A stretch of DNA of 64,000 bases from Escherichia coli. GTDB taxonomy: Bacteria; Pseudomonadota; Gammaproteobacteria; Enterobacterales; Enterobacteriaceae. The notes under the pieces are model-generated. The model was not told the DNA's origin, did not search any database, and saw nothing but the letters and a program-made list of their open reading frames with translations. The translations under genes were made by a program, and so were the position numbers. This document shows positions 32,403-34,492 of the stretch, piece after piece. The stretch lies in NCBI RefSeq assembly GCF_024502345.1, contig NZ_JALDNN010000001.1; one strand, 5' to 3'. Each line of letters begins with the position of its first letter. Position 1 is the stretch's first letter.

Positions 32403-33098
32403 ATGTTCAGAAAATTAGCAGCTGAATGTTTTGGTACTTTCTGGCTTGTTTTTGGTGGCTGTGGTAGTGCTGTACTGGCCGCAGGCTTCCCGGAATTAGG
32501 CATTGGTTTTGCCGGCGTGGCGTTGGCGTTCGGTCTGACCGTTCTGACGATGGCCTTTGCTGTTGGTCATATTTCTGGTGGTCATTTTAACCCGGCGGTC
32601 ACTATTGGTTTATGGGCTGGCGGACGTTTTCCGGCAAAAGAAGTCGTTGGCTACGTAATTGCCCAGGTTGTCGGCGGTATTGTTGCAGCGGCGCTGCTGT
32701 ATTTAATTGCCAGTGGTAAAACGGGTTTTGACGCGGCAGCCAGCGGTTTTGCTTCTAACGGTTATGGCGAGCATTCACCAGGCGGTTATTCCATGCTTTC
32801 CGCGCTGGTAGTTGAACTGGTATTGAGTGCAGGTTTCCTGTTGGTGATCCACGGCGCAACCGACAAATTCGCGCCGGCAGGTTTTGCGCCGATCGCTATT
32901 GGTCTGGCCTTAACCCTGATTCACTTAATTAGTATTCCGGTGACTAACACTTCTGTTAACCCGGCGCGCAGCACCGCGGTTGCTATCTTCCAGGGCGGCT
33001 GGGCATTAGAACAACTGTGGTTCTTCTGGGTGGTGCCAATTGTCGGCGGCATTATCGGTGGTCTGATTTACCGGACCCTGCTGGAAAAGCATGATTAA
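32403..33098 (+). CDS. aqpZ: Aquaporin Z
   Basis: ORF 32397..33098 (GTG-extended) trimmed to [25 protein letters not shown]...; two NPA motifs (HFNPAVT, NPARS). Confidence 0.96.
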
Positions 33099-33108
33099 TT
33101 AACGCAGA

Positions 33109-33137
33109 AGGCCTGGCGTAATGTCAGGCCTTTTTTT
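33109..33137 (+). terminator. Rho-independent terminator downstream of aqpZ
   Basis: aggcctg-gcgtaatgt-caggcct hairpin followed by T7. Confidence 0.8.
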
Positions 33138-33194
33138 AAGATGTTGTTATATGTTGATTCATCATCTTGTTGCGCTCCTTTCATGAGCTAAGCC

Positions 33195-33435
33195 ACATAT
33201 TGCCACTGGCGCAAGGAGCGCGCAGGGGGCGGCCAATCGCCGCCGCCCCCTGCCCCCCCGGGCTCTGGCGAACAAAATCGCCGCTGCGCGGTGCCCTCGA
33301 CTTATCCCTTACGGCTACCGGGTCGGGCGCGAGGTAACATCCCTGTAAAACGCGCCCTCAGCCCACATCCATGTGGGCTGCCCCGGCCTTCAGGGAACGC
33401 CTCGGCGATTTTGACGCCACCAACATCGGTGCAGT
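33195..33435. repeat. GC-rich cluster of perfect hairpins (unclassified intergenic structured element)
   Basis: Perfect inverted repeats cagggggcgg-N10-ccgccccctg and cagcccacat-cc-atgtgggctg; smaller ggcga-acaaaa-tcgcc and ggcg-attttga-cgcc; abrupt GC excess relative to flanks. Confidence 0.6.
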
Positions 33436-33592
33436 TTGTAATTAAAGCGCAAGAATATCTTTAAATGAAAACGAATACTCTACTGCTCCTTATGCATAAC
33501 ATTTCCTTTTAATTGCAACTTTACTCGTCCTTCCGCTTTCAGTAGTGTGTCATCGCGCATTTCGACTTCATCTTTGCAAGGACTGGGTTTTC

Positions 33593-34492
33593 ATGTTTTC
33601 TGGGCTGTTAATCATTCTGGTTCCCCTGATTGTGGGTTACCTCATTCCGCTTCGCCAACAAGCTGCGTTAAAAGTTATTAATCAGCTATTAAGCTGGATG
33701 GTTTACCTTATTCTCTTTTTTATGGGTATCAGTCTGGCGTTTCTCGATAACCTCGCCAGTAACCTGTTGGCGATTCTGCATTATTCTGCCGTCAGTATTA
33801 CCGTTATTTTACTGTGTAATATTGCCGCCCTGATGTGGCTGGAGCGAGGCCTGCCGTGGCGCAACCACCATCAGCAAGAAAAACTCCCGTCGCGTATTGC
33901 GATGGCGCTGGAGTCGCTAAAACTGTGCGGCGTAGTAGTGATTGGTTTTGCCATTGGTCTGAGTGGACTGGCTTTCTTACAACACGCGACCGAAGCCAGT
34001 GAATACACGTTAATTTTGCTACTTTTCCTCGTTGGTATTCAGTTGCGCAATAATGGCATGACCTTAAAGCAGATTGTCCTTAATCGCCGGGGAATGATTG
34101 TCGCCGTGGTGGTGGTTGTCAGTTCATTAATTGGTGGTTTAATTAACGCCTTTATTCTTGATCTCCCCATCAATACCGCGCTGGCAATGGCCTCCGGTTT
34201 CGGCTGGTATTCTCTTTCCGGTATTTTATTGACCGAATCTTTTGGTCCGGTAATCGGGAGCGCGGCGTTTTTTAATGATCTGGCCCGTGAACTGATTGCT
34301 ATTATGTTGATCCCTGGGCTGATTCGCCGCAGCCGCTCTACTGCACTGGGCTTATGCGGTGCCACATCAATGGATTTCACCCTGCCCGTTCTTCAACGTA
34401 CTGGCGGGCTGGATATGGTCCCGGCGGCAATTGTTCACGGTTTTATTCTTAGCCTGTTAGTGCCGATCCTCATCGCCTTTTTCTCTGCGTAA
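33593..34492 (+). CDS. lysO: Lysine exporter LysO (YbjE)
   Basis: ORF 33545..34492 trimmed to MFSGLLIILVPLIVGYLIPL... (299 aa); multi-pass membrane protein; K-12 synteny. Confidence 0.9.
   Translation: MFSGLLIILVPLIVGYLIPLRQQAALKVINQLLSWMVYLILFFMGISLAFLDNLASNLLAILHYSAVSITVILLCNIAALMWLERGLPWRNHHQQEKLPSRIAMALESLKLCGVVVIGFAIGLSGLAFLQHATEASEYTLILLLFLVGIQLRNNGMTLKQIVLNRRGMIVAVVVVVSSLIGGLINAFILDLPINTALAMASGFGWYSLSGILLTESFGPVIGSAAFFNDLARELIAIMLIPGLIRRSRSTALGLCGATSMDFTLPVLQRTGGLDMVPAAIVHGFILSLLVPILIAFFSA

Follow-up and report, generated by a model that had tools for sequence, protein, structure and literature searches.

TRIP1 and the Replication Risk Sequence (RRS) are two names for one repeat, and its copy between aqpZ and lysO of Escherichia coli, TRIP1a or RRS-lysO, is already known, having been catalogued in 1999 and assigned a function in 2024. 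Specifically, Pham, Wood, Dunbar, Cox and Goodman (2024) described the RRS as a G+C-rich sequence of 222 bp that adjoins lysO and dusC, the sister near dusC lying on the other side of dif, and equated it with the TRIP1 of Rudd 1999 (PMC11194060). In K-12 the family copies measure about 266, 273 and 146 bp (Li et al. 2024, PMC10888264). According to the same survey, TRIP1a has 266 bp and 62-65% G+C and lies 70 bp past the aqpZ stop codon and 158 bp ahead of the start of ybjE (lysO); TRIP1c, near yohI/dusC, has 94% identity; TRIP1b, a 146-bp form after putP from which an internal 125 bp is deleted, has 84%; and TRIP1d lies between alx and sstT (PMC10888264). The RRS carries a G-quadruplex (G4)-forming motif, GGGGGTGCAGGGGGCGGCGG, on its 'sense' strand only, and at both lysO and dusC this strand is the lagging-strand template (PMC11194060). 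In vitro the G4 is a block to Pol I, II and IV, in vivo it slows down Pol III, and in K-12, where the work was done, the RRS triggers post-replication single-stranded gaps with loading of RecA and SSB; no gaps were observed with the G-rich strand on the leading-strand template (PMC11194060). [quoted passage not shown] TRIP1/RRS copies have also been reported to mediate megabase inversions between themselves. In the mechanism proposed from this work, unwinding of the element by the replisome would be followed by rapid folding of the G-rich strand into a G-quadruplex and several hairpins; the fold would block DNA polymerases and leave the lagging strand single-stranded for up to about 2 kb behind the fork, and this stretch would become loaded with SSB and RecA. 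Pham et al. hypothesise that the transient gap would then serve as a swivel, or topological relief valve, near the border of the Ter macrodomain (PMC11194060).

We analyzed a 64,000-nt stretch of E. coli DNA (NZ_JALDNN010000001.1; hereafter the window), in which an earlier note had drawn attention to a GC-rich cluster of hairpins at 33195-33435, between aqpZ and lysO. Judged by its sequence, this cluster is TRIP1a, that is, RRS-lysO. The aqpZ stop codon ends at 33098 and the lysO ATG lies at 33594, and the published distances from these two codons place the element at 33169-33434, in exact agreement with the position given for TRIP1a. So placed, it has the published length of 266 bp and a G+C content of 65.8%, and its folded, G-rich 'sense' strand is the minus strand of the window. 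The window element is identical to K-12 TRIP1a at 264 of 266 bases, only two substitutions (33194 and 33254) separating them, and it shares 94.3% identity with K-12 TRIP1c and 83.5% with K-12 TRIP1b. A profile built from 92 family copies matches the window at 33167-33432. The near-identical core of about 222 bp that the lysO and dusC copies have in common, corresponding to the RRS of Pham et al., lies at 33204-33425 (minus strand), boundaries which we estimated from an alignment of the two copies and did not take from PMC11194060. The segment is accordingly a G+C-rich 222-bp repeat beside lysO with a twin beside dusC, as the RRS is defined. The RefSeq annotation contains nothing in the aqpZ-lysO spacer, nor at the sites of the sister copies, and TRIP1a merits correct annotation. 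The earlier note had allowed that a match to a well-described repeat family would explain the segment without novelty, and this is the case here. We hold it very probable that the segment is TRIP1a/RRS-lysO, a sequence whose G-rich strand folds at replication, blocks polymerases and leaves a gap in the lagging strand. The window copy would be expected to behave like the K-12 copy, and the 'relief valve' role may be its selected function.

The suggestion that the cluster belongs to another E. coli intergenic repeat family, of Box C or RSA type, was right in kind, since TRIP1 is a multi-copy repeat, and wrong as to the family. The K-12 repeats in question are RSA (synonym BEE95; 150/151 bp, 6 copies), Box C (about 56 bp, range 51-59, 33 copies) and IRU (127 bp, 19 copies) (PMC5172473). 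RSA is set apart by length and copy number from a family whose three K-12 members measure about 266, 273 and 146 bp, and Box C is a misfit on both counts for a family with three places in that genome.

The four inverted repeats that the earlier note had listed are all present in the sequence, and the cluster is real, though its outline and some of its parts have to be redrawn. An inverted-repeat scan found the first of them, described as 10 bp around a 10-nt spacer, to be perfect but longer: it is the inner part of a perfect 12-bp stem, GCAGGGGGCGGC/GCCGCCCCCTGC, which pairs 33222-33233 with 33242-33253 around an 8-nt loop. This G+C hairpin (hairpin 1, 33222-33253, minus strand) is helix 10 of the family fold described below and has compensatory changes at 8 of its 10 pairs. 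The second repeat is a perfect 10 bp as noted, at 33359-33368 and 33371-33380; as hairpin A (33359-33380, minus strand) it presents the minus-strand loop AUGGAU (33367-33372) and constitutes helix 5, with 4 of 5 pairs compensatory. The two short repeats, ggcga/tcgcc at 33267-33271/33278-33282 and ggcg/cgcc at 33404-33407/33415-33418, both exist, but it is preferable to see in them the two arms of a single long-range helix. This is helix 1, in which 33273-33280 pairs with 33406-33413, and it closes a central domain (33273-33413, minus strand) that is absent from the 146-bp TRIP1b; its outer pair covaries, being G-C in 32 and C-G in 5 of 40 diverse copies. Hairpin B (33325-33357, minus strand; helices 6 and 7) combines GGGCGCG/CGCGCCC with an inner stem and carries the loop AGGGAU (33339-33344). 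A fifth stem, missed previously, pairs GCGCTCCTT with AAGGAGCGC (33172-33180 with 33213-33221) over 9 bp around a variable, A+T-rich loop of 32 nt, and it moves the start of the element about 28 bp to the left of the start noted before. This stem A (33172-33221, minus strand) is helix 11, and it reads GCGCTCC/GGAGCGC in Escherichia and Klebsiella as opposed to CGTTCAC/GTGAACG in other genera.

The window hairpins are far from what chance would produce. The pattern of the 12-bp hairpin has 1 match in the window and 0 in 100 shuffles, and single-strand folding compared with dinucleotide shuffles gives z = -6.6 and -6.75 for the two strands, with 0 of 200 shuffles folding as well. The G+C fraction is 0.64-0.69 over 33150-33374 and 0.37-0.47 in the flanks. 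Two small open reading frames within the element, of 56 and 57 aa, were set aside because they fall inside a non-coding repeat with RNA-type covariation. The terminator hairpin of aqpZ (AAGGCCTG/CAGGCCTT, with T7 after it) occupies 33108-33132 and lies 36 bp to the left of the element.

Folding and a covariance search had been proposed as a check. A strongly covarying fold was obtained, and the only Rfam match was below threshold. We aligned the minus strands of 40 copies of less than 90% mutual identity. Their consensus fold has 56 pairs in 11 helices and is composed of stem A, hairpin 1, a small CCGC/GCGG hairpin and the central domain with hairpins A and B. In these copies 96.9% of the cells assigned to pairs are paired, compared with 36-46% after a shift of the partners by 1-3 columns, and compensatory changes on both sides occur at 31 of the 56 pairs compared with 5-11 in the shifted controls; the observed covariation score was matched by no shuffle. 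Wobble pairs favour the minus strand (98 G-U, or G-T, cells as against 21 A-C), as does RNAalifold (-81 for the minus strand versus -65 for the plus strand), and some G-U pairs are themselves conserved, columns 43-141 being G-U in 38 of 40 copies and columns 46-138 U-G in 27 of 40. Covariation thus points to the strand on which the G4 has been described. While the stems vary, the terminal loop of hairpin A is ANGGAN in 40 of 40 copies and that of hairpin B in 39 of 40.

The G4-forming motif of the window, GGGGGGGCAGGGGGCGGCGG in place of the K-12 sequence given above, lies at 33240-33259 on the minus strand, where it shares bases with the G-rich arm of the 12-bp stem; a search for it gave a single match in the window and none in shuffled sequence. 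As in the published RRS, the motif is confined to one strand, here with one substitution: position 33254 is C where K-12 has A, a T-to-G change within the motif by which GGGGGT becomes part of seven consecutive G on the minus strand. A strict regular expression for four runs of three or more G is matched by only one other Escherichia copy and not by the window copy, and since it is nearly matchless a G4Hunter-type score was used instead. This score peaks at the window motif, at 2.12. Over 126 family copies, however, the median of the maximum is 1.38 and only 40 reach 1.5, strong potential being concentrated in the Escherichia/Klebsiella/Pseudocitrobacter type; a relaxed G3-G3-G2-G2 pattern is found on the minus strand of 101 of the 126 copies and on the plus strand of 1. 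Strong G4 potential is therefore not family-wide, whereas the hairpins covary everywhere. With respect to replication, 7 of the 8 blocks of 8 kb have a negative GC skew on the plus strand, and the gene order of the window is that of K-12 reversed. The minus strand is accordingly the G-rich one and, as these two features suggest, the lagging-strand template, in agreement with PMC11194060.

The distribution of the family in E. coli was assessed with a megablast query (33150-33470) against 5426 complete genomes. Matches were present in 5425 of them, at a median of 3 and up to 8 places, so that the copy-number check that had been suggested shows the segment to be multi-copy in this species. K-12 has three places even with sensitive blastn (aqpZ-lysO, yohP-dusC and putP-efeU), and they conform to the published set: the yohP-dusC copy (TRIP1c) is full length and 94% identical to the window element, and the putP-efeU copy (TRIP1b) is the 146-bp short form without the central part. 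The alx-sstT copy (TRIP1d) occurs in 1668 of the complete genomes. Where TRIP1d is missing (DH5a, locus L129, 745-900; Nissle, L130), the alx-sstT spacer holds another G-rich palindromic repeat, GGGGAGAGGG..TTAGGGTGAGGGG; it looks like Box C, replaces TRIP1d at this place in K-12 as well, and is unlike the window element. Compared with the TRIP1d-bearing locus (L005, 1440-1830), these alleles have an entire segment exchanged for another, as opposed to a simple insertion. Some sister copies have REP-type repeats nearby (L003, 273-350; L002, 7883-7976), which score 56.5 bits against the Rfam naRNA4 (CssrE) model, whose threshold is 59.5, and which are unrelated to TRIP1.

Orientation is polymorphic as well. 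Of the 5426 genomes, 3319 carry the dusC copy as in K-12 and 1998 carry it in the opposite orientation between the same flanking genes (dusC-yohP loci L042, 1080-1760, and L009, 2960-3640). At aqpZ-lysO, 4027 genomes have the arrangement of the window and about 1400 match in the flanks only. In MLI107, the one flank-only strain checked, the element is inverted (L131, 297-558), and in this lysO allele the junction DNA is different and the terminator hairpin of aqpZ is missing. Similar counts of forward and reverse copies were found by Li et al. (PMC10888264).

Outside E. coli, we surveyed one genome per bacterial species with a pattern derived from the element's right end. It returned 119 loci, and all real ones belong to Enterobacteriaceae, in at least 10 genera (Citrobacter, Escherichia, Klebsiella, Enterobacter, Silvania, Leclercia, Lelliottia, Pseudocitrobacter, Trabulsiella and Huaxiibacter); a Raoultella-labelled MAG is one further source, and a phage collection contained no match to the element. 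Among 101 non-redundant copies, 92 have 260-280 bp and 3 about 145 bp. Copies of E. coli or Klebsiella type also turned up in assemblies labelled Pseudobutyrivibrio, Ensifer, Bacillus and Sporobacter (L016, L110, L111 and L064), three of them on contigs of 432-583 bp with coverage below 1x and the fourth on a 2.9-kb MAG contig; these probably reflect contamination or mis-binning. Many copies are arranged as inverted pairs (in Citrobacter 45 of the 50 that were judged, in Lelliottia 8 of 9), while all judged copies of Escherichia (10) and Klebsiella (9) are solo. In a pair the right ends are turned towards each other, with a conserved spacer of 70-85 bp between them, and the outer ends are similar (AATGC..TTCAGTTAA); the composite measures about 720 bp, as in Citrobacter braakii (L057, 6918-7640; also L023, L025, L026, L029 and L092-L096). 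The two arms differ by compensatory changes, so that each retains a fold of its own. A different arrangement is seen in Leclercia adecarboxylata (L107, 10180-10785), where a full copy is followed by four tandem copies of the right-end 80 bp or so, about 160-200 bp apart.

These distributions bear on where the element came from. It is possible, if on the whole doubtful, that it is, or descends from, a mobile or selfish repeat of the non-autonomous MITE or REPIN kind, whose fold would serve its own spread through single-stranded DNA and whose E. coli copies would be domesticated or tolerated remnants. Dispersal over at least 10 genera, the 13 family places in one K. pneumoniae chromosome, the abundance of loci in single genomes of Citrobacter, Silvania and Lelliottia and the inverted pairs with similar outer ends in Citrobacter and Lelliottia all point that way, as do the truncated forms and tandem fragments and the polymorphism of presence and orientation in E. 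coli. However, the comparison of alx-sstT alleles, which are segment replacements, revealed no target-site duplication or clean empty site, and no transposase turned up in association with the copies; the single wide spacer between copies that we inspected (L033) holds an unrelated ORF of 168 aa between entD-like and fepA-like genes, as read from ORF translations without a homology search. Moreover, each type occupies one fixed locus in E. coli (PMC10888264). A mobile past would in any case concern origin and is compatible with the published replication effect.

A second question is what selection preserves. We regard it as rather unlikely, though worth stating, that selection keeps the complete fold of the G-rich strand together with its two ANGGAN loops, and not the G4, and that the primary role of the element is other than a positioned 'relief valve'. 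The weak conservation of G4 potential set against the ubiquitous covariation of the hairpins is what suggests that the whole fold, and not the G4, may be selected. The 1998 genomes with the dusC element inverted in place, and the roughly 1400 without the window arrangement at lysO, of which the one checked has an inverted copy, count against the replication model in another way, for if their backbone is collinear an in-place inversion puts the G-rich strand on the leading-strand template; on that assumption, the natural inversions are the main tension with the published model. Finally, the many copies in other genera, often in inverted pairs, fit a dispersed repeat better than two positioned valves. 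If selection did act on the whole fold, the family could be a transcribed RNA that binds protein via its GGA loops or, alternatively, a spreading repeat that folds as single-stranded DNA, and the inversions in E. coli and the inverted pairs of Citrobacter would need an explanation outside the lagging-strand G4 model.

A further reading is that the fold is transcribed. On this account the conserved structure would be a non-coding RNA made from the minus strand of the window, for example a CsrA-binding, TwoAYGGAY-like RNA with two ANGGAN loops, and the gap effect in DNA would be additional or incidental; we judge this improbable. In its favour, the compensatory changes support 11 helices, some G-U pairs are conserved, the loops are nearly invariant amid varying stems, and minus-strand UACAGGGAUGU resembles RUACARGGAUGU, which we take to be the CsrA SELEX consensus. 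The best Rfam match of the minus strand is TwoAYGGAY, over its full length and with 30.6-33.1 bits in three E. coli copies (E = 0.013 for the window in a 901-base search). TwoAYGGAY RNAs have been proposed to bind CsrA (PMC4333381), and Li et al. suggest that TRIP1 may be transcribed (PMC10888264). Yet that score is below the gathering score, and the model is not matched in the searched copies of Klebsiella, Citrobacter, Silvania, Leclercia and Enterobacter. A scan of 33000-33650 for consensus promoters and terminators found nothing promoter-like or terminator-like, although this simple scan also missed the aqpZ terminator hairpin on account of its 9-nt loop, and no conserved promoter was seen in the flanks of the E. 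coli copies. The orientation of the element relative to neighbouring genes varies by locus and strain, which further argues against transcription. Neighbouring genes gave no CsrA signal in the CsrA CLIP-seq tables of Potts et al., where ybjE, dusC and sstT have 'No' in each of the four yes/no columns and NS for expression change, in a gene-based table that would miss an unannotated antisense RNA. Folding of single-stranded DNA, as in the replication mechanism that we prefer, accounts for the same covariation.

The remaining proposal, that the segment regulates lysO in cis, as a 5' leader or otherwise, or is an sRNA or a 3' element of aqpZ, takes its appeal from a position 158 bp ahead of the lysO start and just past the aqpZ terminator hairpin, and it is close to refuted: the folded strand is antisense to both genes and the sister copies flank unrelated genes (dusC, putP and alx), which together exclude a lysO leader, the scan of 33000-33650 gave no promoter-like or terminator-like site, no Rfam riboswitch or leader family was matched, the natural variant MLI107 has the element inverted between aqpZ and lysO, and about 1400 genomes lack the window arrangement.

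The comparison with known systems can be drawn as follows. REP/BIME, ERIC/IRU, Box C and RSA are, like the present element, dispersed, intergenic and palindrome-rich repeats, and the inverted doublets of REPINs recall those of Citrobacter; these families nevertheless have other lengths and copy numbers than 266 bp and three K-12 places, and no RAYT-type or other transposase association was seen here. TwoAYGGAY (RF01731), described from gut metagenomes, gamma-Proteobacteria and Clostridiales, shares its topology with the minus strand, namely two hairpins side by side that a long stem encloses, with the loops AUGGAU and AGGGAU in our element, and differs in that the second of these is AGGGAU and not AYGGAY. 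Membership of the Rfam family was rejected, the window copy scoring 30.6 bits and two other E. coli copies 33.1 and 30.9 against a gathering score of 43. A divergent relative exists in the partner arm of Lelliottia (L092-L096), about 100-200 bp to the right of the main copy, and in some Leclercia (L114, 6803-7071); its hairpin, CGCCAUGGAUGGCG, is closer to the TwoAYGGAY consensus hairpin (GCCaUGGAuGGC) than are the E. coli copies. The pilE-associated G-quadruplex of Neisseria gonorrhoeae is, according to the statement in PMC11194060 on which this comparison rests, the only other bacterial G4 known to trigger gaps; it differs in serving pilin antigenic variation and in being short, without the 266-bp multi-helix fold and unrelated in sequence.

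With TRIP1 (Rudd 1999; PMC10888264) the window element shares the TRIP1a locus, the 266-bp length and the G+C content, and it differs from the K-12 copy by the two substitutions. With respect to the RRS (PMC11194060), it is the lysO-proximal copy, with its G4 motif on what would be the lagging-strand template and a G replacing the K-12 T; the function has been shown for K-12. What the present analysis adds is of modest interest: the covariation of the fold, the GGA loops, the uneven G4 potential, the inverted pairs and the natural inversions. Nevertheless, covariation, uneven G4 potential, invariant GGA loops and orientation polymorphism bear on how the RRS works, and these comparative results suggest experiments that would separate the G4 from the remaining fold.
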